A stretch of 64,000 nt of DNA from Sulfurospirillum sp. UBA4058 (GCA_002382085.1 DFZK01000014.1:15653-79652); one strand, 5' to 3'; positions 186 to 60,106 are shown, counted from the first letter of the stretch. A program made the numbers and translations. The notes: generated by a model from the letters alone, not told the origin.

Positions 186-207
186 TTAGAATTATGAGGA
201 AAATACT

Positions 208-2690: not shown

Positions 2691-2704
2691 AAGAAGGATA
2701 CTTT

Positions 2705-3742: not shown

Positions 3743-3799
3743 AAGTCTCTTTTGTGTATGATTTTACATAAAATTATGCACAAAAAGAGGTTCACTACG

Positions 3800-5011: not shown

Positions 5012-6453
5012 TGGAACTTTTACTGCATGTAAGTGCACAAGTGTGTTTAACGTTGGGGCTTGGCTACTATTTTATGAGTGCTATGCAATGGTACTCCTAC
5101 CGATTAAAGCGTTTATGTTTTCACTACCATCGTTACGATTGGCATTTTTACTTTCTCGCCGTACCGCTTGCGGGCTATTATCTTTTATCGGAATGGTTTG
5201 TGCTGCTTTGGAGCATCGGCTATCTCGTTTTTCTTTTCGTATGGAACCGTAAACTGGATAAAAAACTCGTTTTTACCCCTCGTATTAAGCGTTTTTTTCT
5301 CTTTTTACTCTTAGCAACGTTGTTTCAAGATACGCTATGTATCGGCGTTTGGCACGGTTGCGAGAAATTCGGTGTTGTGATTCCGCTTTTAACGGCACAT
5401 TTGATCGCCATTGCGTACGAAAAAATACTCTTTGAAGGCTTTAAACGATCTGCACGTCAAAAATTAATGCACAATCCTTCGTTAAAAGTCGTAGCGATTA
5501 CGGCAAGTTACGGTAAAACCAGTATTAAGAATTTTTTGGCACATATCCTCTCTTCCTCGTATCGGGTTTATAAAACACCTCGCAGCGTCAATACCTTAGG
5601 CGGTATTATTAAAGACATTAACGACAACCTGCCCGAAGAAGCATGCGACGTTTATATCGTCGAAGCCGGTGCTAGGCTTAAAGGCGACATCGACGAAATC
5701 GCACGTTTTGTCAATCCGCATATTGCCGTCGTAGGATCGATCGGTGCTCAACATATCGAATACTTTAAAACACTCGAAAACATTCGTAATACGAAAATGG
5801 AGCTTTTGCACTCCTCGCGTCTTGAAAAAGCGTTCGTTCATGAGAGTGCCAATGCCAAAGAGGGCGGAGTCGTGAGTGTTTTCGGTTCAGAAATTACGCA
5901 CATCGACGCCACGTTAAACGGATTAGCCTTTACGCTTCCGATCGAGGGGAAGGAAGAACGCTTTTACTGTAAGCTTTTGGGAGCGTTTAACGCCGTCAAT
6001 TTAAGTGCGGCTATTTACGTTGCACGGACGCTCGGTATCGATACGGAAGCGATTCGCTTCGCAGTTTCTACGCTACGAAGCGTCGAACATCGTTTAGAAC
6101 GTATTGAAGCCGGTGGAAAAATCATTATCGACGATAGTTTTAACGGTAATTTGGAAGGAATGCTCGGTTCATACGATTTAATCGCGACGTATCAAGGTCG
6201 TAAAGTGATTATTACGCCGGGTATCGTTGAAAGCAACGAACATGACAACAGGCTTTTGGCGGAAAAAATCGACGCCGTTTTCGATCTGGTGATTATCACC
6301 GGAAAAACAAATGTTACGATACTAAACAAATCGATTCAAAAAGCTCAGAAAGTTATTTTATCCGATAAAAGCAAACTCCAAGACGTATTAGCCGAATTTA
6401 CGCACAAAGGCGATATTATTCTTTTTTCCAACGATGCACCGAATTTTATGTAA
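5011..6453 (+). CDS. murF: Mur ligase, UDP-MurNAc-tripeptide--D-Ala-D-Ala ligase-like, with hydrophobic N-terminal extension
   Basis: P-loop ITASYGKTSIKNFL, DDSFNGN motif, and ddl-linked synteny. The first ~135 aa are strongly hydrophobic. Confidence 0.8.
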   Translation: MELLLHVSAQVCLTLGLGYYFMSAMQWYSYRLKRLCFHYHRYDWHFYFLAVPLAGYYLLSEWFVLLWSIGYLVFLFVWNRKLDKKLVFTPRIKRFFLFLLLATLFQDTLCIGVWHGCEKFGVVIPLLTAHLIAIAYEKILFEGFKRSARQKLMHNPSLKVVAITASYGKTSIKNFLAHILSSSYRVYKTPRSVNTLGGIIKDINDNLPEEACDVYIVEAGARLKGDIDEIARFVNPHIAVVGSIGAQHIEYFKTLENIRNTKMELLHSSRLEKAFVHESANAKEGGVVSVFGSEITHIDATLNGLAFTLPIEGKEERFYCKLLGAFNAVNLSAAIYVARTLGIDTEAIRFAVSTLRSVEHRLERIEAGGKIIIDDSFNGNLEGMLGSYDLIATYQGRKVIITPGIVESNEHDNRLLAEKIDAVFDLVIITGKTNVTILNKSIQKAQKVILSDKSKLQDVLAEFTHKGDIILFSNDAPNFM

Positions 6454-6528
6454 TCATTTTATTTTGTTATATCTTTATTAGACGTTTGCTATAGTATAGT
6501 GAGTAGAGTTACATTTAAAAGGAGAGAG

Positions 6529-8637
6529 ATGAAAACGAAAAGTTTGTATATTTCATCGCTAGCACCTGCGGCCGGTAGTTTGGTCGTAGCGATGGGTATC
6601 ATGGAGCTTTTAAAAGGACGTCTAGGCAAAGTTGCTTTTTTCCGCCCCGTCGTTGCGGACGACAAAACGGTCGATAAAGATATCGAGTTTATGCTTGAAC
6701 ACTATGCTTTGGGTATGGACGTTCATGAAATGGTCGGTTATAGCGTTCACGAAGTCGAGAGTTTGGTCGCCGAAAATAAATACAACGAAGTGCTCGAGAC
6801 ATTGATCGATAAATTGAAAAATTTAGAGAGCCGATACGACTTTGTGTTGATTGAAGGATTAAATCAATCTAATTTTTCGCCGACGATCGATTTTGATATT
6901 AATCTCTCCATCGCCAAAAATCTTAGTAGTCCTTTTATTAGCGTTTTAAAAGGTAAGGGTAAAAACGTTAAAGAGGTGATTGACGAAATTCATATTGAAG
7001 CCGAAGCCATCAAAGCTGCCGGCTGTCACCACTTTGCAACTTTTGTCAACCGTTTAGGCGAAACCGAATGGGAAGCACTCAAAGAGTTGACTCAAAAAGA
7101 GTCCCTGCAAGAAGCACCCCTATACTTTTTGCAAGAAATCCCCGAACTCGATACGCCTACCGTCGCCGAAATTAAAAAAGCGTTAGGATGCGTTCATATT
7201 TACGGAGAAGAAAAAGACTTACGCCGTGTGGTCAAACAAAGCAAAATCGCCGCTATGAAACTTGACAACTTTTTAGAATACATCGAAGACGGCGATTTGA
7301 TTATTACTTCGGGAGATCGATCCGATATTATCGTCGGTTGTTTAAGCACCGTTTTTTCCAATAACTATCCGAATATCTCGGGTATTTTGTTAACCGCCGG
7401 TATGATGCCGCACAAATCTATTAACAAACTGATTGCAGGCTTTAAAGACCTTTCCATACCCATTTTAAGCGTCGATGAGGGCACGTTTACGACTGCCGTC
7501 AACGTTGCCAACGTACCTGCACGCATTACGCCTCAAAGCGTACGTAAAATTGCGCTTGCTATGGGACTTTTTTCATCCAACGTCAATATCGAAGAGATGC
7601 ATCGATCGATCAATATGCCTTCTTCCGCAAGCTCGATCACGCCGGTAATGTTTGAATACGCCTTGTTTGAAAGAGCGCGAAGAGACCGTAAACGAATTGT
7701 TTTACCGGAAAGTAACGATGAGCGTATTTTACGTGCAACGGAGATTTTGCTTCGACGCGATGTTGCCGATATCATCTTACTCGGCGTTGAAGAAGAAGTT
7801 CGCCAAAAAAGCGCGACTTTAGGGTTGGATATTAGTAAAGCGACCATTATCGATCCGTTGAACTCTTCATTCATGGACTCTTTTGTGACCTCTTTTTACG
7901 AGATGCGTAAAGCCAAAGGTTTAACCCTCGAAGTCGCCAAAGACAGCATGATGATGAAAAATTATTTCGGTACGATGATGGTTTATTTGGGACATGCCGA
8001 CGGCATGGTCTCCGGTGCGATTCATACGACGCAAGAGACGATTCGTCCGGCACTTCAAATCATCAAAACCAAACCGGGCATTTCCATCGTATCAAGCCTC
8101 TTTTTTATGTGTTTAGATACGCGTGTTTTAGTTTACGGAGACTGTGCCGTTAACCAAGATCCTAACGCGGAAGAGTTAGCGCAAATTGCTATTTCTTCGG
8201 CCGATACGGCAAAAATGTTCGGTATCGAACCGAAAATCGCAATGCTTTCGTACTCCACGGGAGATTCCGGAAAAGGCGAAGAGGTCGAAAAAGTACGTTT
8301 AGCAACCAAAATCGTCAAAGAAGCCCGTCCCGATCTGTTGGTCGAAGGACCGATACAATACGATGCCGCAATCGATCCGACCGTCGCAAAAACAAAATTA
8401 CCGAATAGCCACGTTGCGGGTCAAGCGACGATTTTTATCTTCCCGGATCTTAATACGGGTAATAACACCTATAAAGCGGTTCAACGTAGCTCCGGTGCCG
8501 TTGCTATCGGACCCGTATTGCAAGGTTTACGCAAACCGGTCAATGATCTGAGTCGAGGTTGTTTGGTTCCCGATATCGTCAATACGGTTGCCATTACCGC
8601 CATCCAAGCACAAAGCGGAGAAGGGGAAGCACAATGA
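6529..8637 (+). CDS. pta: phosphate acetyltransferase (long form with N-terminal DRTGG-type region)
   Basis: C-terminal PTA_PTB motifs (SGAIHTTQETIRPALQIIKT, YGDCAVN). ATG 6529 follows AAAAGGAGAG. The ATGA overlap with ackA indicates coupling. Confidence 0.9.
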   Translation: MKTKSLYISSLAPAAGSLVVAMGIMELLKGRLGKVAFFRPVVADDKTVDKDIEFMLEHYALGMDVHEMVGYSVHEVESLVAENKYNEVLETLIDKLKNLESRYDFVLIEGLNQSNFSPTIDFDINLSIAKNLSSPFISVLKGKGKNVKEVIDEIHIEAEAIKAAGCHHFATFVNRLGETEWEALKELTQKESLQEAPLYFLQEIPELDTPTVAEIKKALGCVHIYGEEKDLRRVVKQSKIAAMKLDNFLEYIEDGDLIITSGDRSDIIVGCLSTVFSNNYPNISGILLTAGMMPHKSINKLIAGFKDLSIPILSVDEGTFTTAVNVANVPARITPQSVRKIALAMGLFSSNVNIEEMHRSINMPSSASSITPVMFEYALFERARRDRKRIVLPESNDERILRATEILLRRDVADIILLGVEEEVRQKSATLGLDISKATIIDPLNSSFMDSFVTSFYEMRKAKGLTLEVAKDSMMMKNYFGTMMVYLGHADGMVSGAIHTTQETIRPALQIIKTKPGISIVSSLFFMCLDTRVLVYGDCAVNQDPNAEELAQIAISSADTAKMFGIEPKIAMLSYSTGDSGKGEEVEKVRLATKIVKEARPDLLVEGPIQYDAAIDPTVAKTKLPNSHVAGQATIFIFPDLNTGNNTYKAVQRSSGAVAIGPVLQGLRKPVNDLSRGCLVPDIVNTVAITAIQAQSGEGEAQ

Positions 8638-9854
8638 AAATCTTAGTGCTCAATGCCGGGAGTTCTTCGATCAAGTACCAATTGATCAATATGGAAAACT
8701 ATGCCGTTATTGCAAGCGGCTTAATCGAGCAAATCGGAGAAAACTCATCGCTAGCGCGTATTAAATACCTCGATAAAGAGGGCAGTGAACAAAAAATTGA
8801 GCATAAATTGCCGATTCCAAACCATGAAATCGCCTTGAAACTGATGAGTGCACTTTTGATCGAATCAAGTGCCATTCACGATTTAAATGATCTTGACGGA
8901 ATAGGGCATCGCGTCGTACAAGGAGGCTCTTCTTTTCGCGAACCCGTGATCGTCGACGAATGGGTCGCTTCGGAAATCGAACGCTTGATTCCTTTAGCCC
9001 CGTTGCACAATCCGGGGCATTTAGCCGGCATCAAAGTCTCTTTGGAGCAAAGTCCTAGCGTTCCGCAAGTCGTCGTATTCGATACGGCATTTCATGCAAC
9101 GATGCCTCCGCATGCTTACATGTATGCAATTCCCTATCATTATTACGAAAATTTGAAAATCAGACGTTACGGTTTTCACGGAACTTCGCATCGTTTTGTC
9201 GCAAAAGAGGCGGCAAAATTTATGGGTAAAAAGCTTTCCCAACTCAATGCCATTACCCTGCACTTAGGAAACGGTGCTAGCGTGAGTGCCATTCAAAATG
9301 GTCAGAGCGTCGATACGTCTATGGGCTTAACGCCGCTTGAAGGCTTGATGATGGGTACGCGAAGCGGCGATATCGATCCCGCCGTTTTATTTTACCTTGC
9401 ACGCAAAGAGGGTTTGGATATCGAAACATTGGATCGCGTCTTAAATAAGGAAAGCGGTCTCAAAGGTATTTGCGGCATTAACGATATGCGTGAAGTCGGG
9501 CAAATGGCAGAAGAGGGTAACGAAAAAGCACAATTAGCATTGGAAATGTTCAACTATCGCATCAAAAAATACATCGGTGCTTACAGTGCCGCACTAGGAC
9601 GCGTCGATTGTATCGTATTTACCGGCGGTATCGGAGAAAATGCCGTAAACGTTCGCGCTAAGAGTTGCGAAAACTTGCAAAATTTAGGAATTGAAATTGA
9701 TCCGATTCTTAATCAAAAGCGTTCCTCCCGCACGATGCAAATTAGCACGAAAGAGAGTCCGGTAACGGTGCTTGTCATTCCGACAAACGAGGAATTGGAG
9801 ATTGCCTTACAGACGCAAGAAGTCATTGTAGCACACAAGCAAAAGCATTCATAA
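8634..9854 (+). CDS. ackA: acetate kinase
   Basis: KILVLNAGSSSIKYQL, GFHGTSH, VFTGGIGEN. The upstream part of the tracked ORF is read-through of the pta 3' end. Confidence 0.95.
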   Translation: MKILVLNAGSSSIKYQLINMENYAVIASGLIEQIGENSSLARIKYLDKEGSEQKIEHKLPIPNHEIALKLMSALLIESSAIHDLNDLDGIGHRVVQGGSSFREPVIVDEWVASEIERLIPLAPLHNPGHLAGIKVSLEQSPSVPQVVVFDTAFHATMPPHAYMYAIPYHYYENLKIRRYGFHGTSHRFVAKEAAKFMGKKLSQLNAITLHLGNGASVSAIQNGQSVDTSMGLTPLEGLMMGTRSGDIDPAVLFYLARKEGLDIETLDRVLNKESGLKGICGINDMREVGQMAEEGNEKAQLALEMFNYRIKKYIGAYSAALGRVDCIVFTGGIGENAVNVRAKSCENLQNLGIEIDPILNQKRSSRTMQISTKESPVTVLVIPTNEELEIALQTQEVIVAHKQKHS

Positions 9855-9861
9855 AACCTTT

Positions 9862-9888
9862 ACATGTAGGAGATTTTCTCCTACATGT
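9862..9888. terminator. perfect 12-bp-stem hairpin between convergent ackA and yqeY-like gene
   Basis: ACATGTAGGAGA-ttt-TCTCCTACATGT; each arm contains the ACATGT core of the iterated palindrome. Confidence 0.6.
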
Positions 9889-9893
9889 CGCTT

Positions 9894-10340
9894 TTACGCC
9901 AACAACGTTTTCGCGATAAGATTAATACGCTTACCATCCGCTACGCCGGCACATTCGCTTAAAACAACCGGCATCAATTTTCCGATCTCTTTCATAGACG
10001 TAATGCCTAAAGCCGCAATATGCTTTTGAAGAATACCTTTAAGCTCATCATCGCTTAATTGTTGAGGCAAATAACTTTTTAATAGCGCAGCTTCCGCCGT
10101 CTCTTTTTCGACAAGGTCATTACGTCCGGCTTCTTGAAACGCACTGATCGCATCTTCACGTTGTTTAAGCGATTTTTGGATAATTTTCATAATATCCTCA
10201 TCGCTCAGCTCTTTACGCTCGTCAACTTCGATTTGTTTGAGTGCGCTCATTAAAAAGCGTATCGCATCGCGTTTAAAAGCATCTTTGTTTTTCATGGCTT
10301 CTTTCAAGTCGTCTTGAAGTTTCGTTTTCAGTTGAGACAT
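9894..10340 (-). CDS. GatB/YqeY domain protein
   Basis: 148 aa, typical YqeY pattern (LKEAMKNKD..., IQKSLKQREDAI, LPQQLSDDEL). Confidence 0.85.
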   Translation of the reverse strand: MSQLKTKLQDDLKEAMKNKDAFKRDAIRFLMSALKQIEVDERKELSDEDIMKIIQKSLKQREDAISAFQEAGRNDLVEKETAEAALLKSYLPQQLSDDELKGILQKHIAALGITSMKEIGKLMPVVLSECAGVADGKRINLIAKTLLA

Positions 10341-10490
10341 CTTTTCCTCCTGTATTCATACAATGTAAAATGTAAAAGATATTTTATAGTTTCTATCATA
10401 AAAACGTCCATAACAAAGGGTTTTTAACGACAAAATGACTGTTCTGAATCCTGAACGGATATAGGCGTACCCTATTGAGATGTTATATTT

Positions 10491-10520
10491 GTATTGGAAA
10501 CTATAATTTCCAAACTTAAA
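10491..10520. other. candidate dif-type (XerH/difH-like) recombination core site
   Basis: TTGGAAA-CTATAA-TTTCCAA, a perfect 7-bp inverted repeat around a 6-bp spacer. Intergenic, and 3.8 kb from a XerH-like gene. Confidence 0.5.
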
Positions 10521-10700
10521 TACACTCAAGAAATTCCCAAGTCATAATGAAGACTTTATATCATACCCTTTTAACCTAAAATAGACTCTTGATGCATGAT
10601 ACATGAAAAATCGATTGAGAAGGATTAAGGCAAATGATTCGGATAGATAATAAAGACTCTACCCCACTTATTGCCCCTCCCTTGGTGCATCTTCTTCTAG

Positions 10701-10714
10701 CTTTACATGTAAAG
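10701..10714. repeat. iterated palindrome copy CTTTACATGTAAAG (14-bp perfect)
   Basis: Read directly; lies 22 nt downstream of the lysozyme-like gene stop. Confidence 0.9.
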
Positions 10715-10735
10715 TTAAAAGTTTAGCTCAGACCC

Positions 10736-11179
10736 CTATTTTTTGTATGCCATATCTACGAGTACGATAAGCTCTTTGGTATTTGCCATTGCATTATAAA
10801 GCTCTGTACCAAGTTTCTTTTTTACTATATCTTCATATTGTCCTTTAATAGCAAGGAGAAGATTATCCCCTTGTGTTTGAGTTAAAGTAATCGCATTGGT
10901 ACTAGCATTAAAAGTATCGATTTCACTTTGGGAGGCAATTCCATTATTTTTTGCCCAATCATCTAATGATTTTCTTTGTGATGGTGAAAGCACAATTCCT
11001 ATTTTTGCAAAATCCGCTGATATTGTTGCAATTGTTCCATTAAGAGCATACCCGTATCCAATCGTTGCAACCCCTTTACTATCAAGATAAACCTTTGAGT
11101 GAAACGCTTCATTTTTTTCGATAAACGCTATTAATTCACCTTCGTAATTTGCAGTCGTATGTAATGTTGTTAGTGCCAT
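10736..11179 (-). CDS. GH24 (phage/T4-type) lysozyme-like protein, possibly C-terminally truncated
   Basis: YEGE...YLDSKGVATIGYGY motif and no signal peptide. The ORF ends at LVDMAYKK, where family members normally continue. Confidence 0.55.
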   Translation of the reverse strand: MALTTLHTTANYEGELIAFIEKNEAFHSKVYLDSKGVATIGYGYALNGTIATISADFAKIGIVLSPSQRKSLDDWAKNNGIASQSEIDTFNASTNAITLTQTQGDNLLLAIKGQYEDIVKKKLGTELYNAMANTKELIVLVDMAYKK

Positions 11180-11200
11180 AGTTTTTTCTCCTTCTTTTAT

Positions 11201-12223
11201 TTAGTATTTAAAATCAGATGTTCTAAAAATAATCGCCGCATATTCTGCGCCGATTACTTCAATGCCAAACTGTTCCCAGTATTTTGATAATTCTAAAATA
11301 TCTCGAACCCAAAAGTTAACAGTGTCATCGTAATGACCCATGGTAATAAGATACTCTTTGTGGTTATAAATAATAATATTTGCATTGCCACTAAAAACAC
11401 CATATGAATTCTTAATAGACTCTTTATCCGTATTTAATGCTTTTGCTACATCTCCGTTATACCTAAGCTCTTTACAATAACTTGGATCAACCACATCATA
11501 ATCGCCATCATTAAGAATTGGTCGTATAAAGAACCACTCTTTACCCTTTGCATTGAGTTTCCAGATGTAAAGATCGAAGCCGAGAATAGGTCTTCTACTA
11601 ATAACTGGATTAATAGGGTCTAGGTCTGGTGACATATACATATCTTCCCCTGGTTCAAGTATTCTATGCGGAGTCTTTATGACTTCCAGATCAAACCGAT
11701 ACCCATGACACTTTTTTAAAATCTCTTTAAGTTTAGGATCGTTATAGTCTTTTACCTCTGCGATAAGCGGTTTCTTAAAGGTAATATTTCTAAAGCAAAA
11801 GAAATCTTCTTTGAACGTTTTGCTTTGTTTTTTATCATATGGTACGCTCGTTACTTTTTTGGGGTCTACTTCTTGCATACTCTCTTGTGCTATTTTCATC
11901 GCATCAAGGTAGGTTTTCGGAAAAGTCTTTTGATTGGATAAGGAGATTGTCAGCTCTTCTAGTCTTGTTGTATAAGCCTCTTTGATGCAAAGAGCATCTT
12001 GACATTGACTCCTTTGTTTTACCCACGCTCTTTGATCACTTTTGATCTCTTTAGTTAGGAGATAAAAACTTGTATAGACCTCACTTAGTTTTTCGTCCAA
12101 CTTTGACAACGCATCATCCTGACAAATTGCTTTTTCTACATCGCTTTTAGCTTTGGTACAATCAAAGCTCGCCCCCAAAAGCGAAAATGTCATTAGTACC
12201 AATACGAGTAATAATTTTCTCAT
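11201..12223 (-). CDS. secreted protein with N-terminal DUF1311/LprI-like domain and unknown C-terminal domain
   Basis: Signal peptide MRKLLLVLVLMTFSLLGA. Cys-paired helical motif DCTKAKSDVEKAICQDDALSKLDEKLSEVY...AWVKQRSQC. Confidence 0.5.
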   Translation of the reverse strand: MRKLLLVLVLMTFSLLGASFDCTKAKSDVEKAICQDDALSKLDEKLSEVYTSFYLLTKEIKSDQRAWVKQRSQCQDALCIKEAYTTRLEELTISLSNQKTFPKTYLDAMKIAQESMQEVDPKKVTSVPYDKKQSKTFKEDFFCFRNITFKKPLIAEVKDYNDPKLKEILKKCHGYRFDLEVIKTPHRILEPGEDMYMSPDLDPINPVISRRPILGFDLYIWKLNAKGKEWFFIRPILNDGDYDVVDPSYCKELRYNGDVAKALNTDKESIKNSYGVFSGNANIIIYNHKEYLITMGHYDDTVNFWVRDILELSKYWEQFGIEVIGAEYAAIIFRTSDFKY

Positions 12224-12291
12224 CTTTCCCCTCCCTTTTCACGCTTTACTTGTAAAACTTTCTCTTGCTCTTCTTTCCACCGTTTCAACAT
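12220..12291 (-). CDS. possible 23-aa small ORF (MLKRWKEEQEKVLQVKREKGGER)
   Basis: ATG lies 4 nt after TAAGGAGG. Its TGA overlaps the ATG of the downstream gene (ATGA). It is below the ORF-track length cutoff. Confidence 0.2.
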   Translation of the reverse strand: MLKRWKEEQEKVLQVKREKGGER

Positions 12292-12378
12292 ACCGCCTCC
12301 TTATGTTGATTGTGTTTTCCTAGCTCATACCATCCTAGTTTTCCCATCATCTTTGTGCCTTTTCAATGTTATTGATAT

Positions 12379-12392
12379 CTTTACATGTAAAG
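12379..12392. repeat. iterated palindrome copy CTTTACATGTAAAG
   Basis: Supplies the ...Tyr-Met-stop end of the radical SAM gene. Confidence 0.9.
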
Positions 12393-13124
12393 CCGCTTAA
12401 CCCCAGTCAGTTCACCGCATTGCGTGCAACACGAAGGAACACTCTTTTGGGTTAAATGGTGTTGTATGACTTTAGGGTGTAAGACTTTTTTGGAGTCGAT
12501 CATAAAGCAACACGGCGCTTTGGTACCATCTACAAAGTAGTACCGCATCTTTTCATTCTCCACGTAAGGACATTGGTAGGTTGTATAAGGTAAGGGTTCT
12601 GTGGAGTAATGCGCTTGGTAACTTTTTTTTGGTTGGATTCTTTGTATCACAAGAGGAATGTTTTGCTCTTTGGCAAAGGATTTAAGCGGTTCTAGGTCTT
12701 GCCCGTAGTTGACGGCATAGAGTTTGACTTTTTTAGGGGTTAAGCTATGGCATGCTAAAAGATGTTTAAGGGTTTGAGCAGGCGAAGTTCTGCCACTTCG
12801 TTTGGCAAGGGCTTCATCTAGGGTATCAAGGGAAAAGCCAATGTGGTCGAGTAAGACACTGTGGGTTGAAGACAGAGGCATGGAGCCATTGGTAATAGTG
12901 CTGATGCGATGACCTTTGCTTTTAGCATGAGCGACCATTTCCCAGAAAAAAGGATGTAAAAGTGGCTCACCGGTTCCTTGCATGAGGAGCAACGTAGGAG
13001 ATTTTTCCCTTTGAAGGATGCGCTCAAAGCATTCCCATGCCATATGTTTATGCTCCAACGTATCATTGGGGCAATAGAAGCATTTAGCGTTACATACGGT
13101 GGTGATCTCGATTTGGGTGAACAT
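12381..13124 (-). CDS. radical SAM protein with C-terminal SPASM/twitch-like Cys cluster
   Basis: CNAKCFYC (CxxxCxxC) at residues 11-18. C-terminal CPYVENEKMRYYFVDGTKAPC fits CX14GX4C, followed by CCTQC. Confidence 0.75.
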   Translation of the reverse strand: MFTQIEITTVCNAKCFYCPNDTLEHKHMAWECFERILQREKSPTLLLMQGTGEPLLHPFFWEMVAHAKSKGHRISTITNGSMPLSSTHSVLLDHIGFSLDTLDEALAKRSGRTSPAQTLKHLLACHSLTPKKVKLYAVNYGQDLEPLKSFAKEQNIPLVIQRIQPKKSYQAHYSTEPLPYTTYQCPYVENEKMRYYFVDGTKAPCCFMIDSKKVLHPKVIQHHLTQKSVPSCCTQCGELTGVKRLYM

Positions 13125-13885
13125 TAGGCTTGCACCTTAGAAGGAATATGCTTTTTTAGCATATTCCTAGCTTTAGCACCGTAACGAAAGTTGAGCATGG
13201 CAAGTTGGAGGAAGTATTCGCTTTGTTGAGGGGAAATATTTTCTAATTGGCAAAAGCGTGCAACGGTTTGAATATGCCGTAATCTATGATAATGCCGTGG
13301 TTTACTGGTTTGAATGGAATTGGGGATGTCATTGTAAATATAATTAATCGTAGGATGCACGCTAAAGTGCTCTTTGCGGTACAAAAGTCTTAGAAGCGTT
13401 AATACATCATTAAAAATAGCATTATCATGTGCAAAGGGTACTTGTCTGGCTAGATCAGTGGCAATAATAGCACCATTGTGAATAGAGCGAGGCGCTAAGA
13501 TGAGCTCTTCAAGTGTCACATTGGTTGGATCAGCACTTCGATTCATGCGTGCTAAATGAATGTTATAGGGCATAGAGAGAGGAAGTTCTAAGAGAAAATC
13601 ATCGGCATCGACTTTGCAGACGCAAGAGCCTTTGGCATGGGAAACACCGATATTAAACGGTAAACCGTCATGACCTGATTGGTAGGGAGTTTTAAGATAA
13701 ACAAAGCCACTTTGTTTGGCAAGGGTAATGACCGCTTCATCACTTGAGCAATCATCCACCAAGATCACTTCCAAAGGATCAAGCGTACGAACACTTTGCA
13801 GGCATGCTTGAAACGCTTCATACGGTGGATTGTAAAAGGGAACGACGATACTTAAATGCTTATGGATCATTTGTTTTCTTTTCAT
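13124..13885 (-). CDS. family 2 glycosyltransferase
   Basis: LSIVVPFYNPP, ILVDDCSSD and VDADD (DxD). The stop overlaps the radical SAM start (TAATG). Confidence 0.75.
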   Translation of the reverse strand: MKRKQMIHKHLSIVVPFYNPPYEAFQACLQSVRTLDPLEVILVDDCSSDEAVITLAKQSGFVYLKTPYQSGHDGLPFNIGVSHAKGSCVCKVDADDFLLELPLSMPYNIHLARMNRSADPTNVTLEELILAPRSIHNGAIIATDLARQVPFAHDNAIFNDVLTLLRLLYRKEHFSVHPTINYIYNDIPNSIQTSKPRHYHRLRHIQTVARFCQLENISPQQSEYFLQLAMLNFRYGAKARNMLKKHIPSKVQA

Positions 13886-13935
13886 GTAACCTTATATTTT
13901 TTAAAGGCGTGATTGGCTATGTCCTACGGACACTA

Positions 13936-13950
13936 CTTTAACATGTAAAG
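13936..13950. repeat. iterated palindrome copy with 1-nt insertion (CTTTAACATGTAAAG)
   Basis: Read directly; intergenic, upstream of the GT2 gene. Confidence 0.7.
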
Positions 13951-14287
13951 GCAAATAGCAAAAGAAGGCATTAAAAGCGAGTAAGGCTGGCATGTGTATA
14001 GATGCCATTCAATACTTGTTAAACTAAAGGGAAAACATTATGAAAGGAGTATAGTTTTGAGAAGTAAAGATGTTTGGATTAAGAACGTTTGCCCAATGCG
14101 TCTTTTACCCTTCAAAGATTTATACAGCTCAAGTAGCCCCCTACGGTTGAGTCACACAAATACATTTGATTGTCTTATAAGATCACATTTTAGTCATTAT
14201 AACCTTAAAGGTGATAACGATAGGCATATAGTTTTAAGTTTGCACGTCTTTTAAGTCTTTTAGAGAGCTACGGTTGCATGAGCGTTT

Positions 14288-14305
14288 CTATAATTTCCAA
14301 ACTTA
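14288..14305. repeat. partial dif-like site (spacer + right arm), direct repeat of 10501-10518
   Basis: 18/18 identity to the left copy. The left arm is not conserved (GCGTTTC versus TTGGAAA). Confidence 0.8.
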
Positions 14306-14383
14306 TAAAATTGAAGTGTTTATTCGAGATTTAAATGAAAAAACGTTAGTATAATCAACTATTTCAATAAAAGCGACGTATCG

Positions 14384-15436
14384 ATGAAATACCCTTTAGA
14401 TTGCGAAGACTCGTTTAACGACACCTACCTTTTTTGGCTTGTGCGATTCATTAGAAATAAGATTACGTCTCTTTCAAATCGACATGTCCAAGATAAAGAT
14501 CGGCTTGCGTTGATTCTCCAAAAACTTTCGAAAAATCGCTATTCGCTTGAAGCGTTAAATCCGCTGGTCAAGGAAATTCGCAATATCGGTATCAATAGTA
14601 TCCACGTCTATTTTATTCCTCTTGAAAAATTATCGCTCTTTTTAAACACTTACGGAGCTTCTTCGATGAGAGAGATAGACGAAGAGTTATTGAGCGATTT
14701 TTTAGCATCCGAAACGGCTAATCTATCGGATGCGACTAAAAAAAACTATCGTATTGCACTCATTGCATTTTTCGGATTTATCGACAAACAAAATGCAGAT
14801 GCAAGCGGTAATGCCTTTCGATACGGAATTGAACTCAAAAATTGGGGTGGACTGGGAGGTAAAAGCGGTACGAAACTCCCCTCTTTTATGAATCAGGAAG
14901 AAGCTCAACGCTTTATTGAAGGGATCGACGCTTATCCTTTTGAGCTCAAATCTGCCGCTCGCAACCGCTTAATTATTAAAGTCATTTTATATACGGGAAT
15001 TAGGGTCAGCGAAGCTCTTCATATTCTTCTCAAAGATTTTGTCAAAGACGGAAACGCTTACGTCATTCAAGTCAGAGGAAAAGGTAATAAACCTAGAGTC
15101 GTCATGATTAAAGAAGCGATTATTCAAGAAGATTTGCGACTGTGGTTAGACTCTAAAACGTGCGATAACGGTCTTTTATTTTGTAACCACAAAGGTAAAG
15201 TATTAACCCAAGCATACGTCAGTCGTCTTGTCGAGAAAATTCTCTTACATGTCGGTATTCGTAAAAATAAAAACGGGGCACATATGTTACGGCATACTTT
15301 TGCAACTTTACTTTATCAAAAAAGTAAAGATTTGATTTTGGTACAAGAATCGCTCGGTCATGCAGACATTAATACGTCAAGAATTTATACGCATTTTGAC
15401 AAAGACCGTCTCACGAAAACAACGGATATTTTTTAG
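14384..15436 (+). CDS. xerH: tyrosine site-specific recombinase, XerH-like
   Basis: Catalytic set present: R (TGIRVSEAL), K (RGKGNKPR), HxxR (AHMLRHTFAT), H (LGHADINTS), Y (RIYTH). At 350 aa, similar to my recollection of epsilonproteobacterial XerH length. Confidence 0.7.
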   Translation: MKYPLDCEDSFNDTYLFWLVRFIRNKITSLSNRHVQDKDRLALILQKLSKNRYSLEALNPLVKEIRNIGINSIHVYFIPLEKLSLFLNTYGASSMREIDEELLSDFLASETANLSDATKKNYRIALIAFFGFIDKQNADASGNAFRYGIELKNWGGLGGKSGTKLPSFMNQEEAQRFIEGIDAYPFELKSAARNRLIIKVILYTGIRVSEALHILLKDFVKDGNAYVIQVRGKGNKPRVVMIKEAIIQEDLRLWLDSKTCDNGLLFCNHKGKVLTQAYVSRLVEKILLHVGIRKNKNGAHMLRHTFATLLYQKSKDLILVQESLGHADINTSRIYTHFDKDRLTKTTDIF

Positions 15437-15440
15437 AGAA

Positions 15441-15476
15441 TAGCCGCACGGACGTAATGCGGCGGCTATTTTTTTT
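15441..15476. terminator. bidirectional intrinsic terminator between xerH-like gene and rubrerythrin gene
   Basis: TAGCCGC...GCGGCTA stem followed by T8. Confidence 0.7.
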
Positions 15477-15488
15477 AATGTGTGCTTT

Positions 15489-16139
15489 TTAGAGCCCTAA
15501 ACATTGGCGTTTGAAATACTCTTTACCGACTTTACAAAGCGGGCATGCATTGGGAGCGCGTTTACCTCGATGAATGTGTCCGCATACCTCACAAACCCAA
15601 ATCTCCTCTTCTTCATCGCTAAAGAAACCGTCTTCTCTCATCGCATCTTGTAAGGTTTTGTATTCGCGTTCGTGTTCGACTTCAACTTTGCCGATAGCGT
15701 TAAAAAGGCGCGCAAGTTCTTTATGCCCCTCTTCTTCGGCGATTTTGGCAAAATTTGGATACATCGTTTCATGCTCGTAATGTTCGCCCGCCATTGCGCT
15801 ATCAAGGTTTTTCAACGTTAACTCGGTTTCAGCACCGTCTACAAGTTTATGATACGCTTTGAATTCGGCACGCGCATGCCATTTTTCATTCTCCGCCGCT
15901 TCTCTGAAATGACGCGCTACCGCATGCCAGCCCTCTTCTTGTGCGATGTCCGCAAAAAGATCATACTTATTTCTCGCTTGAGATTCGCCGGCGAAGGCTT
16001 TCATCAAATTGACCGCCGTCAAATCCGTCGTAATGCACTCCATGGCTTGACCGCAACAGGTCAGCTTTCCGCCACCGACGTTTTGAACCTCTACCTCATT
16101 ACCGCATTTGCTACATTTATACGTTTCGTACTGTCTCAT
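15489..16139 (-). CDS. rbr: desulforubrerythrin-type rubrerythrin (desulforedoxin-like N-domain, erythrin four-helix bundle, C-terminal rubredoxin)
   Basis: N-terminal CSKCGN...CCGQ, diiron E..H motifs (EGWHAVARHF, EHYEHE), C-terminal CEVCGH...CPLC. Confidence 0.85.
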   Translation of the reverse strand: MRQYETYKCSKCGNEVEVQNVGGGKLTCCGQAMECITTDLTAVNLMKAFAGESQARNKYDLFADIAQEEGWHAVARHFREAAENEKWHARAEFKAYHKLVDGAETELTLKNLDSAMAGEHYEHETMYPNFAKIAEEEGHKELARLFNAIGKVEVEHEREYKTLQDAMREDGFFSDEEEEIWVCEVCGHIHRGKRAPNACPLCKVGKEYFKRQCLGL

Positions 16140-16207
16140 TGTTTCTCCTTTTAGGTTTTGATGATAGTATCTTAGAGCAATTTAACTTACAAAGAAATAA
16201 ATATCAT

Positions 16208-16224
16208 ATAATAAAATTTATTAT
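16208..16224 (-). promoter_or_regulatory. possible Fur/PerR-type operator upstream of rubrerythrin
   Basis: Perfect 8-1-8 palindrome ATAATAAA-A-TTTATTAT, 69 nt upstream of the rbr start. The AT-rich context raises the chance of a random match. Confidence 0.3.
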
Positions 16225-16267
16225 TTAAAGCATATTTTATGTATTATTATACGTAAAATATACCCTT

Positions 16268-16534
16268 TTAGCACTTTTTGTACCCGTTAGAAAGATTTTT
16301 AACGATTCCGTACACGGTAATGACGATCCAAAAAATTTCAATCAGAAACGATCCTAAATTAAAATGAACGTATAACGAAACGATAAGAGCAATAGCACCC
16401 GTCAAATTTAAAAGCTGATACGTCAAGGAATGCACGTCGCATTTACCGATTTGCAATAAAAAATAGGCAAGAACGATACAGAGCATTCCTCCAAAACCAA
16501 GCCATTGAAACAGATCCATCTCAATATGCGTCAT
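16268..16534 (-). CDS. small integral membrane protein (3 predicted TM segments)
   Basis: Hydrophobic segments; abuts the upstream gene with no gap. Confidence 0.5.
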   Translation of the reverse strand: MTHIEMDLFQWLGFGGMLCIVLAYFLLQIGKCDVHSLTYQLLNLTGAIALIVSLYVHFNLGSFLIEIFWIVITVYGIVKNLSNGYKKC

Positions 16535-17128
16535 TTATAAAATTCCTTTATTTTTAAAAAACGTTTCAATGCTTTTCAGCGAAAACGCCTTATCGTAGGT
16601 AAAAAGTTCTTGCCACGTTTTACCTTCCAAGCACGCTTTTGTATCGATACGATACTTGGCTTTTACGGCATTAACGAATTCGATGGTCGCACTCAAAAGC
16701 ACGGCATACTGCGCAACCGTCAAATGTTTCAAAAGATCAAATAAACGGTAATAATTGACCATTTTTTTACTCGACTCTTCACCCATCCGAAGCGACCAAA
16801 TGCGTCCGGCAAACTCATGCTGGTATTCGACGCCGTTGCGTACTTCCAAAGCGAAAGCACGAAAGCCTCGCATCAACTCCTCTTTAGCAATAAACTGATC
16901 GATCGTGTAAAAAAAGAGATAAACGGAAAGTAAAAAGAGCTCTTCCGGACACGGAGCGTATTGTTTGATCTCGGCACACGTCTCTTTTTCAACACATAGT
17001 TGCATACGAAGATAGGCTAAATGTTTAACACGCCAATTCTCTTTTTCGTCTGCCCTCTTCTGCCATTCGATGAGTGTGGGGCGGGGAATAGAAAAACGCT
17101 CTACTAAAGGCTTATAGGAGATTTGCAT
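16535..17128 (-). CDS. hypothetical protein, possible N-terminal HTH
   Basis: Long ORF with coding-like composition and the segment FSIPRPTLIEWQKR; no family recognised. Confidence 0.4.
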   Translation of the reverse strand: MQISYKPLVERFSIPRPTLIEWQKRADEKENWRVKHLAYLRMQLCVEKETCAEIKQYAPCPEELFLLSVYLFFYTIDQFIAKEELMRGFRAFALEVRNGVEYQHEFAGRIWSLRMGEESSKKMVNYYRLFDLLKHLTVAQYAVLLSATIEFVNAVKAKYRIDTKACLEGKTWQELFTYDKAFSLKSIETFFKNKGIL

Positions 17129-17219
17129 CGTAAAATCCTTAGTCGAAATACATCATTTTATAATTTTATTTAAAATATTTCAATACTAAAGGCAAAAAAG
17201 AACTTTGAAGACAAAAGAT

Positions 17220-17256
17220 GTATATCATCATTTTATTTAAAAAAATGATGATATAC
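17220..17256 (-). terminator. intrinsic terminator after UbiD-family gene
   Basis: 15-bp perfect stem GTATATCATCATTTT / AAAATGATGATATAC with a 7-nt loop; T-rich tract downstream on the minus strand. Confidence 0.65.
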
Positions 17257-17267
17257 CTATTATTAAA

Positions 17268-19076
17268 TCAAATCTGAAAATGTTTCAAAAAAATCGGGTC
17301 GTTTTTGACGAAACCGCGTTCAATCAGGTTTTGAATCGTTGCCGGATCGCACGTCGTGTCATCCGGCCACTCCCTACGATAACCGTCAAGTTCCGTCTTC
17401 ATCGTCGCATCGATACCGATGAATTCATTCTCGATAAAAATATCACGCAACGCATCGATATTATTGACCACGCGCCAAAGGAGCATATACGCATTATCGA
17501 CGCTGTTGCTTTCATAATCTACGATTACAAAAAGCTTGAGATGATCGCTTAAGGGTTTCAAGGCTTCATAAATCTCTTTTCCGTTACGTTTTTTCTCAAT
17601 TGCCAAAACACAAATCGGCGTTTTAGTCTGCGTTTTGTACTGTTTCAACGCTTTTATTTCAGGAACAAGCGTAGTCACTTTGAGTAAAAGCTCCTGATCG
17701 CTCAGCAAAGTTTTTACCCCCTCTTCTACCATTTCGCCCGTAGCATCGACTCCCAGTTTCCCGCCAAAGAGCGCATTGGGAGAAGCATGATCCAAGGCGT
17801 CGCAAACACCTTCGCTAATGAGCAAACGTTTAGCACTCAAACGATCCAAGATATAATCGCTGATTTTCTCATAATCACTTAAAGCAGGCGCGTTTTCATC
17901 GACAAAGAGCGCATGCTTGACAAAGCTCATCTGCCCTACACCCCAAAATGCGTGCATAAATTGCTTAGCATGACCCGGATAAAGCACGTTCATCTTGGCT
18001 AAAATAAGATTGTGAAAAACACCGTTTTCGGGCATATTGTAGTCGATCAGATCGGGAGCGGTCGTTTTTAAGAGCGGCAAAAAGATACGCTCCGTCGCCC
18101 ACCCCATGTATTTATCCTCAAGCGGCGGTTTACCCACGACCGTGGCTTGATAGATTGGTTTTTCTTTACATGTAATGCAACTCACGTCCATGACGGGATA
18201 CGGCTCTTTGAGCGTGTAATAGCCCGTATGATCGCCAAAAGGCCCTTCAATTTCCATCTTACTCGGATCGACCCAACCTTCGATCACGATGTCGGTATCT
18301 TCGGGAATGTAAATCGGATTCGTTAAAGACTTCACCAAACGCGCGTTTTGATCTTTGATAAAACCGTAAAGCAAGAGTTCAAACATACCGATCGGCATCG
18401 GTGCTTGACCGCACCAAATATACAGAGGATCGCCGCCGATAGCAACGCTTACGGGCATTTTTTTGCCCGCTTTTTGATACTCATGGAAAAAATGCGCGCT
18501 ATCTTTGTGAATCTGCCAGTGCATTCCCAGACGATTCTTGTCATACACTTGCAGGCGGTACATACCGAGATTTTGCTTCGTACCGTCCAAACTTTGCGTA
18601 TAGACCTGCCCCATCGTGATGAACGGTCCGCCGTCTTGCGGCCACGTCGTTAAAATCGGAAAATCGTAAAGATTGGGTTCCGCGTAGACTTTCGTTTGAC
18701 AAACGCCCTTTTTGGAAAGACGTTTCGGAAGCGCGTTTTTAAGATTGAAAAGCGTTCCGAGCATCCCGAGTTTATCCATAAACGAGGTCGGCGGTTTCAT
18801 ATGCATCAAAGATTCGATCTGCTTGGCGACGTCGTCGGGATGTTTTCCGAAGATCAGTTCGGTCGCTTTTTTCGAACCGAAAACATTCATCAAAACCGGC
18901 ATATCAAACGCTTTTCCCAAACGCTTGCTGACGGGTTTGGTAAATAATAGCGCACGGGAGTCTTCTTTTTTAACTTCGATATACGCTAAATGCGGAATTT
19001 CAAGGTCAATGTCGAGTTCATCGTCAATGACGCGAAGCAAATCGTTTTGACGAAGCAGTTCAATGACGCGTTCCAT
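17268..19076 (-). CDS. UbiD-family decarboxylase (menaquinone/ubiquinone biosynthesis type)
   Basis: 602 aa with typical UbiD segments (GPFITMGQVYT, NLGMYRLQV, FGDHTGYYT). Confidence 0.85.
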   Translation of the reverse strand: MERVIELLRQNDLLRVIDDELDIDLEIPHLAYIEVKKEDSRALLFTKPVSKRLGKAFDMPVLMNVFGSKKATELIFGKHPDDVAKQIESLMHMKPPTSFMDKLGMLGTLFNLKNALPKRLSKKGVCQTKVYAEPNLYDFPILTTWPQDGGPFITMGQVYTQSLDGTKQNLGMYRLQVYDKNRLGMHWQIHKDSAHFFHEYQKAGKKMPVSVAIGGDPLYIWCGQAPMPIGMFELLLYGFIKDQNARLVKSLTNPIYIPEDTDIVIEGWVDPSKMEIEGPFGDHTGYYTLKEPYPVMDVSCITCKEKPIYQATVVGKPPLEDKYMGWATERIFLPLLKTTAPDLIDYNMPENGVFHNLILAKMNVLYPGHAKQFMHAFWGVGQMSFVKHALFVDENAPALSDYEKISDYILDRLSAKRLLISEGVCDALDHASPNALFGGKLGVDATGEMVEEGVKTLLSDQELLLKVTTLVPEIKALKQYKTQTKTPICVLAIEKKRNGKEIYEALKPLSDHLKLFVIVDYESNSVDNAYMLLWRVVNNIDALRDIFIENEFIGIDATMKTELDGYRREWPDDTTCDPATIQNLIERGFVKNDPIFLKHFQI

Positions 19077-19085
19077 GCTTTTTCC

Positions 19086-20030
19086 TTAAAATACTTCGTT
19101 GAGTGCCATTGCCTCGGCACGCTCTAAAAGTGCCTTAGCTCCGCGTTCTACTACCTTCTGTGCCAACATTTTACCGATGTTCGCATACTCTTCACGTCTC
19201 GTCGTCAGCGACTCAAACATCATTTCAGAACCGTCGGGCATACCCAAAATCGCCCTTACATGTAAGCTTTCGCCTTTAATTTCGGCGTTCACGCCGATGG
19301 GCACTTGACAACCGCCTTCTAAAATCGTTACGAAATCGCGTTCCACGCGTGTTTCGATAATCGCATCTTGATCGTTTAAAACCGATACCAAACGCTCGAC
19401 TTCGGGATCATCGACGATTTCGATACCCAAAGCCGCTTGTCCGGACGCAGGAATCATCACCTCTTTCGAAATCGGTACGAAATGTGCCACTTCATTCATT
19501 AAGCCTAAACGGTTAATGCCCGCACTCGCTAAAATAATCGCATCAAATTCGCCCTCTTTAAGCTTGCGAATACGCGTATTGACGTTACCTCGAAGATTTT
19601 TGATCACAAAATCGGGACGCAGTTTCAGTAACTGCATTCTACGTCTCAAACTCGTCGTTCCGACAACCGCACCGTGAGGTAATGTTTCCAAAGAGGTGTA
19701 TTTTTCGGAGAGCATCGCATCGCGTACGTCTTCTCGCTGAGTGATGACGCCCAACTTGAGTCCCGCAGGAAACTCCATCGGAACGTCTTTGAGACTGTGC
19801 ACGGCGATATGCGCCTCACCTCGAAGCATTGCTTCTTCCAACTCTTTCGTAAACAGTCCTTTACCGCCGATTTTGGCTAAAGGCGTATCTAAAATTTTAT
19901 CGCCTTTGGTCATCATAACGGAGAGTTCGACCTCCAAGCCCGGATGCGCTTTTTCAAGCTCCGCTTTGACGTGTTCGGATTGCCAGAGAGCAAGTTTACT
20001 TCCTCGGGTTGCAATGATTAATTTTTTCAT
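19086..20030 (-). CDS. hemC: hydroxymethylbilane synthase (porphobilinogen deaminase)
   Basis: [28 protein letters not shown]. Confidence 0.95.
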
Positions 20031-60103: not shown

Positions 60104-60106
60104 GCG

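Follow-up and report, generated by a model that had tools for sequence, protein, structure and literature searches.

[quoted passage not shown] The control of Xer recombination has been worked out mainly with their help, and to our knowledge the well-described examples all use XerC/XerD, apart from one that uses XerL. [quoted passage not shown] The xerH-difH system of Helicobacter and Campylobacter (Carnoy & Roten 2009; Debowski 2012; Bebel 2016), whose recombinase and core site are orthologous to those analyzed here, has been described solely as a housekeeping system for dimer resolution. Work with the H. pylori enzyme has shown that XerH subunits on the left arms carry out the first strand exchange, and that right-arm-only substrates are uncleaved in vitro and give about 1% recombination in vivo. 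In the searchable literature we found no report of a XerH IMEX or of any element that exploits xerH-difH.

We analyzed a 64,000-nucleotide stretch of Sulfurospirillum sp. UBA4058 (GCA_002382085.1 DFZK01000014.1:15653-79652), hereafter the window. A preliminary description had proposed that a good dif and a degenerate dif flank inserted DNA here, as in an IMEX. Empty sites in relatives, a genuine XerH and the identity of the core site as difH support that proposal, and we put the probability at about 0.7 that the 3,769 bp at 10519-14287 are a XerH-mediated insertion into difH with IMEX anatomy.

Table 1. Features of the difH-xerH locus, numbered from the first nucleotide of the window.
Feature	Position	Strand	Basis
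yqeY, chromosomal left-flank gene	9894-10340	-	PF09424 2.1e-48
Intact difH, attL-type border	10491-10516	+	Read from sequence
difH left arm, GTATTGGAAA	10491-10500	+	
difH central region, CTATAA	10501-10506	+	
difH right arm, TTTCCAAACT	10507-10516	+	
Direct-repeat copy 1: central region, right arm and 2 further bp	10501-10518	+	
Inserted island between the repeats, 3,769 bp	10519-14287	.	Gap in BLAST against L001 and L002
Island left end, non-coding, common to all cargo variants of the species	10519-10639	.	
Cargo ORF, 147 aa, weak T4-lysozyme-like (GH24) match	10736-11179	-	
Cargo ORF, 340 aa, secreted protein, weak LprI/DUF1311-like N-terminus	11201-12223	-	
Radical SAM protein, 247 aa, conserved right half of island	12381-13124	-	PF04055 2.9e-13
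GT2 glycosyltransferase, 253 aa, conserved right half of island	13124-13885	-	PF00535 3.4e-12
Island right end, non-coding	13886-14287	.	
Direct-repeat copy 2: half-site, attR-type border, central region and right arm	14288-14305	+	
xerH, host tyrosine recombinase, 350 aa, outside the island	14384-15436	+	Pfam, PDB

The difH core site and its recombinase

The perfect 7-6-7 inverted repeat TTGGAAA-CTATAA-TTTCCAA noted earlier at 10494-10513 was confirmed on re-reading the sequence. It lies within a site of the layout tGTATTGGAAA / CTATAA / TTTCCAAACTt, with inverted arms of 10-11 bp around a 6-bp centre. As in H. pylori, the left arm has the form GT-N2-TG, with a spacing 1 bp longer than in the right arm, GT-N1-TG. 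The preliminary description had pointed to a likeness to Helicobacter and Campylobacter difH arms, and this likeness is borne out: the H. pylori arms are AGTTATGAAAA and TCAAACTTTT, and the site matches the published difH of A. butzleri and C. concisus (GTATTGAAAACTATAATTTTCAAA). The 26-mer is found upstream of xerH in about 50 of the 63 species or loci compared, and its conservation at this place, in one orientation or the other, reaches from Sulfurospirillum to Campylobacter and Helicobacter. Our search of the window for a better dif candidate returned none: the full site is present once in the 64 kb, in intergenic DNA of low GC content and about 700 bp from the extreme of cumulative G-C skew at 9804. 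Skew is +0.017 to the left of difH and -0.075 to its right. Because of its conservation upstream of xerH, its match to published difH and its position at the skew switch, we identify 10491-10516 on sequence grounds as the canonical difH of Campylobacterota.

The neighboring gene had been called XerH-like, and its product proved to have the domains of a genuine XerH, PF18644 (1.7e-52) and PF00589 (1.5e-30) in a Pfam scan. Residues 1-349 give a full-length alignment to PDB 5jjv (E 8e-96), in which the catalytic motifs R..K..HxxR..H..Y correspond to TGxR, GKG-K, HMLRH and LGH..RIYTH. By these matches, 14384-15436 encodes a true XerH. The gene is also present at loci that lack the island, where it lies about 80 bp from difH, and yqeY adjoins difH-xerH in these empty-site genomes (gene order in L178).

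The island, its borders and empty sites in relatives

The sequence CTATAATTTCCAAACTTA at 10501-10518 recurs at 14288-14305 with 18/18 identity, in direct orientation and 3787 bp away, as the preliminary description had stated. With up to 3 mismatches allowed, these are the only two matches in the 64 kb; the chance expectation is 0.09, and at least 2 matches arose in 0 of 100 shuffles. The repeat and the central region begin at one and the same base, the boundary at which XerH cleaves. The second copy of the repeat is indeed a half or degenerate site without a left arm, with an unrelated sequence, gcatgagcgttt, to its left. It also lies close upstream of the recombinase gene, ending 78 nt before the ATG of the 350-aa ORF. 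An inverted 10-mer copy of the left arm and spacer at 10384-10393 was present as described and extends to 15/19 matches (10384-10402 versus 10488-10506). Because it is kept, with one change, in relatives with an empty site, this copy is old chromosomal flank in the yqeY upstream region and no product of insertion.

Empty sites were sought in relatives and found in three sequences of a sister lineage, namely S. cavolei NBRC 109482, the MAG Epsilon_01 and one Logan contig (L001, L002 and L178). Each has yqeY, a single difH and xerH, with nothing between, and in BLAST the left and right parts of the window alignment share 16 bp, which fall on the single difH of L001 and L002. [quoted passage not shown] Within the species we found no empty allele, as all contigs with the identical XerH protein (9/9) carry an island at this position. 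The arrangement of difH, island and half-site recurs in independent assemblies and is real.

As described previously, four accessory genes fill the interval, all on the minus strand. The 147-aa ORF has a PF00959 match below threshold (5.6e-4) and a match to PDB 1t8a with an E value of 0.26, in which the E/D/T catalytic positions are aligned. Pfam and NCBIfam scans detected no recombinase gene among the four ORFs, and none of them is a mobility, replication, transfer or phage gene. The non-coding right end has no Rfam match. The claim that the interval is AT-richer than its surroundings holds in part: GC content is 38.3% in the island compared to 42-43% in the flanks, with 35.4% in the left cargo half (10519-12380) and 41.1% in the right half (12381-14287).

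That right half also limits the view of the DNA as foreign. The inserted DNA is not clearly foreign, because its GT2/radical-SAM half is a genus-native Sulfurospirillum module. GT2 homologues with 83-92% identity occur at other loci in other Sulfurospirillum. The radical SAM and GT2 genes are paired at non-dif loci in two contigs (L189 and L190), and the non-coding DNA upstream, about 350 bp, accompanies the module at non-dif loci in L187, L189 and L190. The S. cavolei-like L190 has the module without a half-site. In S. deleyianum L187 the terminus region is crowded with IS21 copies. Homology to the module at these other loci ends at 14220-14235, so the last 55-65 bp of the island belong to the dif-borne copy alone.

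Both island ends are retained across strains of the species, while the cargo differs. Other genes take the place of the 340-aa ORF in sister strains, and elsewhere the cargo is an ankyrin protein, RTX proteins, or a large cadherin-like RTX protein together with a type I secretion system. No recombinase was detected in the sampled parts of these variants. Divergence between strains is patchy inside the module and shows no step at the att sites, so that the later turnover resembles homologous recombination more than a site-specific process. A metagenome scan with the 18-mer for a circular form gave unrelated chance matches alone and did not recover the species itself. All contigs with the exact 340-aa cargo protein (6/6) are long and chromosomal. 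Viral scans for both island ends returned nothing, and viral, plasmid and phage searches were negative.

Origin of the island

We read the locus best as an old, now fixed XerH-mediated capture of an IMEX-type island. The island lies at the chromosomal dif, between dif and a dif-like direct repeat; relatives have an empty attB; and an own recombinase is absent from the four window ORFs, larger strain variants being partly sampled. From this anatomy we infer that XerH catalyzed the insertion. Host XerH would have recombined chromosomal difH with a site on circular DNA that had the identical central region and right arm and no left arm; the attP can be reconstructed as ...gcatgagcgttt-CTATAA-TTTCCAAACTTA-aatacactc.... 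The attL would then join the chromosomal left arm to the element's right arm as a working difH, and the attR would join the element's pseudo-left arm to the chromosomal right arm as the half-site beside xerH. Because the left-arm XerH exchanges first and right-arm-only substrates are uncleaved, a one-armed attR should be a poor partner for excision. The island would thus be locked in while the intact difH keeps resolving dimers, and it would have diversified in place through homologous recombination. The same H. pylori data imply that XerH would use a one-armed attP inefficiently, unless binding to the degenerate arm is cooperative or an accessory factor takes part.

In a Halarcobacter MAG (L007), a full difH and a right-arm half-site enclose an unrelated 2.3-kb insert, with the layout and polarity of the Sulfurospirillum island, and a 93%-identical relative (L063) has an empty site. 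We surveyed polarity at 55 loci with a full difH (934 kb) and found no extra perfect half-sites other than those of Sulfurospirillum and Halarcobacter. Both are right halves, directly oriented, and lie to the right-arm side of difH. The Halarcobacter half-site has 2 changes, and in strains L066 and L068 the spacer of the half-site is mutated to CTGTAC. The half-site is decaying in some strains, which fits a loss of function.

The boundaries of these repeats bear on whether XerH was involved at all. A dedicated tyrosine integrase could have used an attB that overlaps difH by chance, with XerH a mere neighbor and the integrase either encoded by the element and since lost or supplied in trans from elsewhere in the genome. 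Integrase islands typically leave direct repeats of 15-50 bp, like the 18-mer, and H. pylori XerH acts poorly on sites with a right arm only. The middle of the larger cargo variants is also incompletely sampled because contigs end there, and a PF13009 'Integrase_2' protein lies next to difH in the related contig L183. We nevertheless consider this origin unlikely, as neither the window island nor the sampled variant cargo contains an integrase, and the site is a universally conserved Xer substrate. Moreover, the repeat starts exactly at the XerH left-arm/central-region boundary and spans the central region and the full right arm, and an unrelated island in another genus has identical boundaries and polarity. 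That independent structure, equal in site and polarity, also speaks against an origin with no site-specific step. The GT2/radical-SAM module would then have moved beside xerH by transformation with homology-facilitated illegitimate recombination or through some other rearrangement of the terminus region, with the 18-bp repeat as a microhomology by-product. Such a history would suit a genus-native module that sits at differing loci across species, later changes that are clearly homologous-recombination tracts, and terminus regions that are plastic, as in S. deleyianum with its IS21 copies. Illegitimate joins, however, normally come without an 18-bp duplication edged at a recombinase cleavage position, and both empty-site flanks are otherwise untouched. 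We regard this history as quite unlikely.

Very unlikely, in our judgment, is the reverse order of events, in which two sites and the island are ancestral to the clade and a precise deletion between the repeats removed the island from the S. cavolei lineage. The empty site is known from three sequences of a single sister lineage, our searches recovered no closer outgroup that shares the flanks (neighbors differ in L183 and L184), and Xer-mediated excision would give a precise loss of this kind. An earlier insertion would still be required for the duplication, and so the timing would change but the nature of the element would not. In addition, the L190 module at another locus without a half-site fits relocation into dif in the window lineage.

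Other elements apparently also exploit difH, because two homologous inovirus-like prophages in IMG/VR contigs (L174 and L176) abut a perfect difH beside xerH. They have pIV-like (5.5e-48) and Zot-like (1.5e-27) proteins and lie on the left-arm side of difH. A broader proposal, which we offer tentatively and regard as doubtful, is that difH is a general single-recombinase platform for DNA capture in Campylobacterota with two polarity classes of exploiters. One class may comprise recombinase-less islands whose attP consists of the right arm and central region (the window island and L007), and the other may comprise the inovirus-like prophages. If this were true, XerH would have to exchange productively with a partner missing the very arm at which cleavage normally starts. 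This would imply cooperative loading, or an FtsK-independent exchange started on the right arm, neither of which has been described so far. The islands would then be cassette arrays, with cargo swapped near the Sulfurospirillum-specific palindrome CTTTACATGTAAAG.

Comparison with known Xer-exploiting elements

The half-copy beside xerH is, as far as we could find, the first sign that DNA insertion can exploit the single-enzyme XerH system of Campylobacter-type bacteria. A natural XerH pair of intact difH and one-armed site would give H. pylori XerH a testable integration reaction, and would reveal how one recombinase distinguishes the resolution of dimers from the capture of elements. It would also mark difH in Campylobacter, Arcobacter and Helicobacter genomes as a place to seek accessory genes and filamentous prophages that carry Zot.

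The gonococcal genetic island (GGI) of Neisseria gonorrhoeae, a XerCD IMEX, is likewise an island without its own integrase that is stably integrated at the chromosomal dif. An intact dif borders it on one side and, on the other, a modified dif in which one arm and the central region are preserved (PMC5357621). The GGI spans 57 kb, uses XerC/XerD with FtsK and codes for a type IV secretion system, whereas the window island spans 3.8 kb and its host system is the single XerH. The second arm is divergent in the GGI and absent from the window half-site. In the XerCD IMEXs GGI and TLC-phi, the XerC arm and central region are kept and the XerD arm is divergent, which parallels the window island. 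The nearest counterpart of a one-armed attP is that of TLC-phi, a Vibrio cholerae satellite phage, which matches dif in one arm and the central region but has no consensus site for the other recombinase subunit. Unlike the window island, which encodes nothing comparable, TLC-phi replicates and encodes the XafT activator, with XerD-first exchange.

LME-1 of Legionella pneumophila also exploits a single-recombinase Xer system (XerL), is flanked by a wild-type and a modified dif when integrated, and excises rarely (PMC9765430). It differs as a phage-like episome with a 22-bp att that mimics most of dif, and its XerL dependence has been shown experimentally. XerL is unrelated to XerH, and more than 400 kb separate the Legionella dif from xerL. 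CTX-phi and VGJ-phi integrate at dif through host Xer and are resembled by the inovirus-like prophages; the window island differs from them in having no phage genes, and it lies on the right-arm side of difH whereas those prophages lie on the left-arm side. With the xerH-difH system of Helicobacter and Campylobacter, the window locus shares the arm asymmetry, the 6-bp centre, the linkage to xerH and the position at the skew peak.

The difH site and its one-armed copy

The preliminary description likened the arms of the core site to those of difH, and the window site indeed matches the difH published by Carnoy and Roten (PMC2731167), of which A. butzleri provides an example (GTATTGAAAACTATAATTTTCAAA). 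Its perfect inverted repeat, TTGGAAA-CTATAA-TTTCCAA, is present as first read, and its arms show the same asymmetry as in H. pylori, with the GT-to-TG spacing 1 bp longer in the left arm. Across 63 loci that encode relatives of the window XerH, the 26-mer GTATTG[G/A]AAA-CTATAA-TTT[C/T]CAAACT was found upstream of xerH, in either orientation, in about 50. The carriers belong to Sulfurospirillum, the Arcobacter group, Wolinella, enterohepatic Helicobacter and Campylobacter. The search for a better dif candidate left this as the single full site in the window. It lies ~700 bp from the cumulative G-C peak at 9804 (skew +0.017 on the left side, -0.075 on the right), the position expected of a terminus.

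The 18-mer CTATAATTTCCAAACTTA occurs in two identical copies in direct orientation, which are its only matches in 64 kb at three or fewer mismatches (0.09 expected). [quoted passage not shown] Four ORFs lie between the copies, all on the minus strand, and 78 nt separate the second copy from a 350-aa ORF. The product of this ORF, previously described as XerH-like, is XerH. It has an N-terminal domain specific to XerH (PF18644, 1.7e-52) along with the catalytic domain (PF00589, 1.5e-30). An end-to-end alignment with H. pylori XerH (PDB 5jjv, E 8e-96) shows that the active-site motifs are conserved.

We also considered the inverted 10-mer near difH as an accessory recombination site. It is part of a longer inverted copy, 85 bp from difH, which is kept in relatives with an empty site and shares bases with a TATAAA-like box in the yqeY upstream region. 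We therefore rejected this role, and the inverted copy is probably yqeY promoter sequence rather than a recombination site. An Rfam scan of 9800-15500 at E <= 1 gave no match.

Positions of the features discussed, with the four island ORFs; unnamed loci are in the window
Locus	Position	Strand	Feature
	9894-10340	minus	yqeY
	10384-10402		inverted 15/19 copy of difH left arm plus spacer
	10491-10516		difH: left arm 10491-10500, central region CTATAA 10501-10506, right arm 10507-10516
	10494-10513		perfect inverted repeat
	10501-10518, 14288-14305		18-mer copies; the second is the half-site
	10519-14287		island, 3,769 bp
		minus	147-aa ORF: T4-lysozyme-like, weak; E/D/T catalytic positions align; Pfam 5.6e-4 (sub-threshold); PDB 1t8a E 0.26
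		minus	340-aa ORF: secreted protein, weakly LprI-like N-terminus
		minus	247-aa ORF: radical SAM protein
		minus	253-aa ORF: GT2 glycosyltransferase
	14384-15436		xerH
	57423-63919	minus	type I secretion/RTX cluster: TolC-like OEP 9e-48; HlyD-like; HlyC-type acyltransferase 8e-34; RTX ~1,105 aa, 4e-68
	2268, 10703, 12381, 18166, 19256, 24329, 27343, 34497, 41193, 42574, 44681, 57313		palindrome TTACATGTAA
	10701, 12379		perfect 14-mers CTTTACATGTAAAG
L007, Halarcobacter MAG	7619-9983		insert: 497-aa membrane protein with weak ankyrin matches, 77-aa ORF
L063	9955-9983		empty site
L046, C. troglodytis	9210-9468		left half (left arm plus spacer), 1 mismatch, 233 bp from full difH
L036, Campylobacteraceae MAG	~4672-4990		left half, 2 mismatches, 279 bp from full difH
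L174, IMG/VR	1-10520		inovirus-like prophage
L176, IMG/VR	222-6783		inovirus-like prophage
L183	1222-10000		8.7 kb between difH and xerH
L177, IMG/VR	1-9801		near-mirror inverted duplication centred on perfect difH (4880-4901)
L187, S. deleyianum CP001816	1.256-1.277 Mb		GT2 homologue without adjacent radical SAM gene

Occupied and empty difH loci

Relatives were examined for an empty site, and three loci have a single difH and lack the 3.8 kb. S. cavolei NBRC 109482 and the MAG Epsilon_01 share ~88% DNA identity with the window, and their XerH is 96% identical to that of the window. A third empty site was found on a Logan contig in which yqeY, difH and xerH are contiguous. In the first two, window 5000-10516 aligns with positions 4403-9919 of the empty locus and window 14288-21000 from 9904 onwards. 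The two alignments share 16 bp, which fall on the single difH, and the sequences flanking the empty site correspond to those left of the full site and right of the half-site. The duplication begins with the first base of the central region, the point of cleavage by a tyrosine recombinase. The arrangement of full site, island and half-site recurs in several independent assemblies and is thus not an assembly artefact. We put the probability that the 3.8 kb is an insertion into difH at about 95%, and we think it likely that XerH made the junctions. The earlier interpretation of the island as an integrative mobile element exploiting Xer (IMEX) is supported as far as comparative genomics reaches, by the empty sites and by a direct repeat at the cleavage boundary.

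We propose that XerH would have recombined difH with circular DNA carrying gagcgttt-CTATAA-TTTCCAAACTTA, the candidate attP core being ggttgcatgagcgttt-CTATAA-TTTCCAAACTTAaatacac. At the left border this would give a functional difH, and beside xerH a one-armed site. Bebel et al. (PMC5241119) have shown that XerH makes the first exchange on left arms, and that substrates with only a right arm are bound more weakly and are not cleaved. This would explain the stability of the island and the drift of the half-site, whose spacer has changed to CTGTAC in two strains, L066 and L068. Present-day mobility of the island is probably low. The same property makes the original integration mechanistically non-trivial, and the proposed mechanism does not explain how a genus-native module came onto a circle with a dif half-site. 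A metagenome scan for attP or attB with the 18-mer gave 99 matches, all in unrelated coding sequence; as it did not recover the source species, it was uninformative about both forms. BLAST of the island against plasmids and phages and viral scans with both island ends gave no match.

Cargo of the island

The window island encodes no recombinase, replication or transfer gene. A PADLOC scan of the cargo gave only a radical-SAM/viperin-family match, which is generic and gives no grounds for proposing a defence role. Strains of this species are 99.2-99.5% identical in their chromosomal flanks. They have in common the full difH, the initial 121 bp of the island and its right 1.9-2.06 kb, consisting of the radical SAM and GT2 genes, ~400 bp of non-coding DNA and the half-site. 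The middle of the island is variable. One type encodes an ankyrin protein and an RTX protein; the other, which totals at least 19 kb, encodes RTX proteins, a cadherin-like/RTX protein at least 1,542 aa long and all components of a type I secretion system. The window carries a type I secretion/RTX cluster near its right end, in a region of low GC (33-36% at 57-59 kb), and this is the same kind of cargo as in the dif island of a sister strain.

Repeated site-specific replacement of the cargo would be marked by a step in divergence at attR, and the strain comparison showed none. Identity between strains falls to 95.5-96% in the shared right end, where the differences are patchy and cluster within the GT2 and radical SAM genes. 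Patchy divergence inside genes with no step at the att site argues for homologous-recombination tracts rather than repeated site-specific events, and the sequence comparison points to homologous recombination in later cargo turnover. The GT2/radical-SAM module itself is genus-native, with homologues 83-92% identical at other loci in S. deleyianum, a 2.75-Mb contig (L189) and an S. cavolei-like contig (L190). No half-site or xerH was found near these homologues, and their nucleotide homology to the window ends at 14220-14235, ~55-65 bp before the half-site. Transfer of the module from the 57-kb region of the window, suggested by a 90-bp match in L190, was rejected because the match is the 3' end of a TolC-like gene with paralogues in the cargo variants. 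The neighbourhood of the S. deleyianum GT2 homologue, with its DUF5625/SPM-family genes, phage-type integrase and three IS21-type copies, has the character of a plasticity zone.

The palindrome TTACATGTAA is the commonest 10-mer in the window (12 copies, 0.09 expected), mostly inside coding ORFs. Other Sulfurospirillum loci are enriched in it too, L187 and L189 having 6-7 copies per 21 kb, frequently paired at a 32-bp spacing. It is nearly absent from the Arcobacter-group, Helicobacter, Wolinella and Campylobacter loci that we checked (one copy, in Aliarcobacter L012). The two perfect 14-mers inside the island lie at or near the divergence points of strain cargo. The palindrome could be an uptake or recombination signal.

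Other difH-associated elements and known IMEXs

The Halarcobacter MAG L007 has a full difH adjoining xerH. On the right-arm side of this difH, at a distance of 2.3 kb, is a perfect copy of the central region and right arm in direct orientation. L063, which is 93% identical, has an empty site, and the sequence to its right corresponds to that beyond the distal half-site of L007. The L007 island is an independent second case of the same layout. Among 55 loci with a full difH (934 kb), only the window and L007 have extra perfect half-sites, with the same polarity. The ankyrin cargo of L007 and L066 was rejected as homologous, BLASTP similarity being at the repeat level only. The left halves in L046 and L036 are in direct orientation on the left-arm side of difH and may be scars of lost elements.

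Five IMG/VR contigs contain a perfect difH. Two of these, L174 and L176, carry homologous inovirus-like prophages of an Aliarcobacter-like host, with pIV-like (5.5e-48) and Zot-like (1.5e-27) genes and a weak RCR-nickase match. On the left-arm side of difH, 19 bp separate it from the end of the last prophage ORF, and in L174 xerH lies on the opposite side. These prophages are candidate CTX-type IMEXs of the XerH system, with no far-end att site identified. In L177, the ORF sizes are 149, 450, 131, 101 and 189 on one side of difH and 193, 101, 131, 450 and 149 on the other; the mirror may be either a chimera of the assembly or a true palindrome. L183, with a XerH that is 82% identical, holds a CBASS-type defence set (SMODS/CD-NTase, E1/E2, JAB, SAVED) and a 1,328-aa helicase between difH and xerH. 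A PF13009 integrase-like gene flanks difH on its opposite side. L183 yielded no clean half-site, and a degenerate one near xerH was set aside for its unfitting polarity and an indel.

A search for XerH or Campylobacter together with IMEX in the searchable literature, to which subscription journals do not belong, found no XerH case. Its yield was limited to reviews, a TLC-phi XafT preprint, a paper on Legionella LME-1/XerL and an unrelated paper on Vibrio cholerae viral satellites. In PMC5357621, the TLC-phi XafT preprint and PMC9765430, the only host systems described for IMEXs are XerCD and XerL, and within that limit an island exploiting XerH/difH is new among IMEXs. Its nearest analogues are the gonococcal genetic island and TLC-phi, in whose sites the XerD arm is divergent while the XerC arm and central region are retained.
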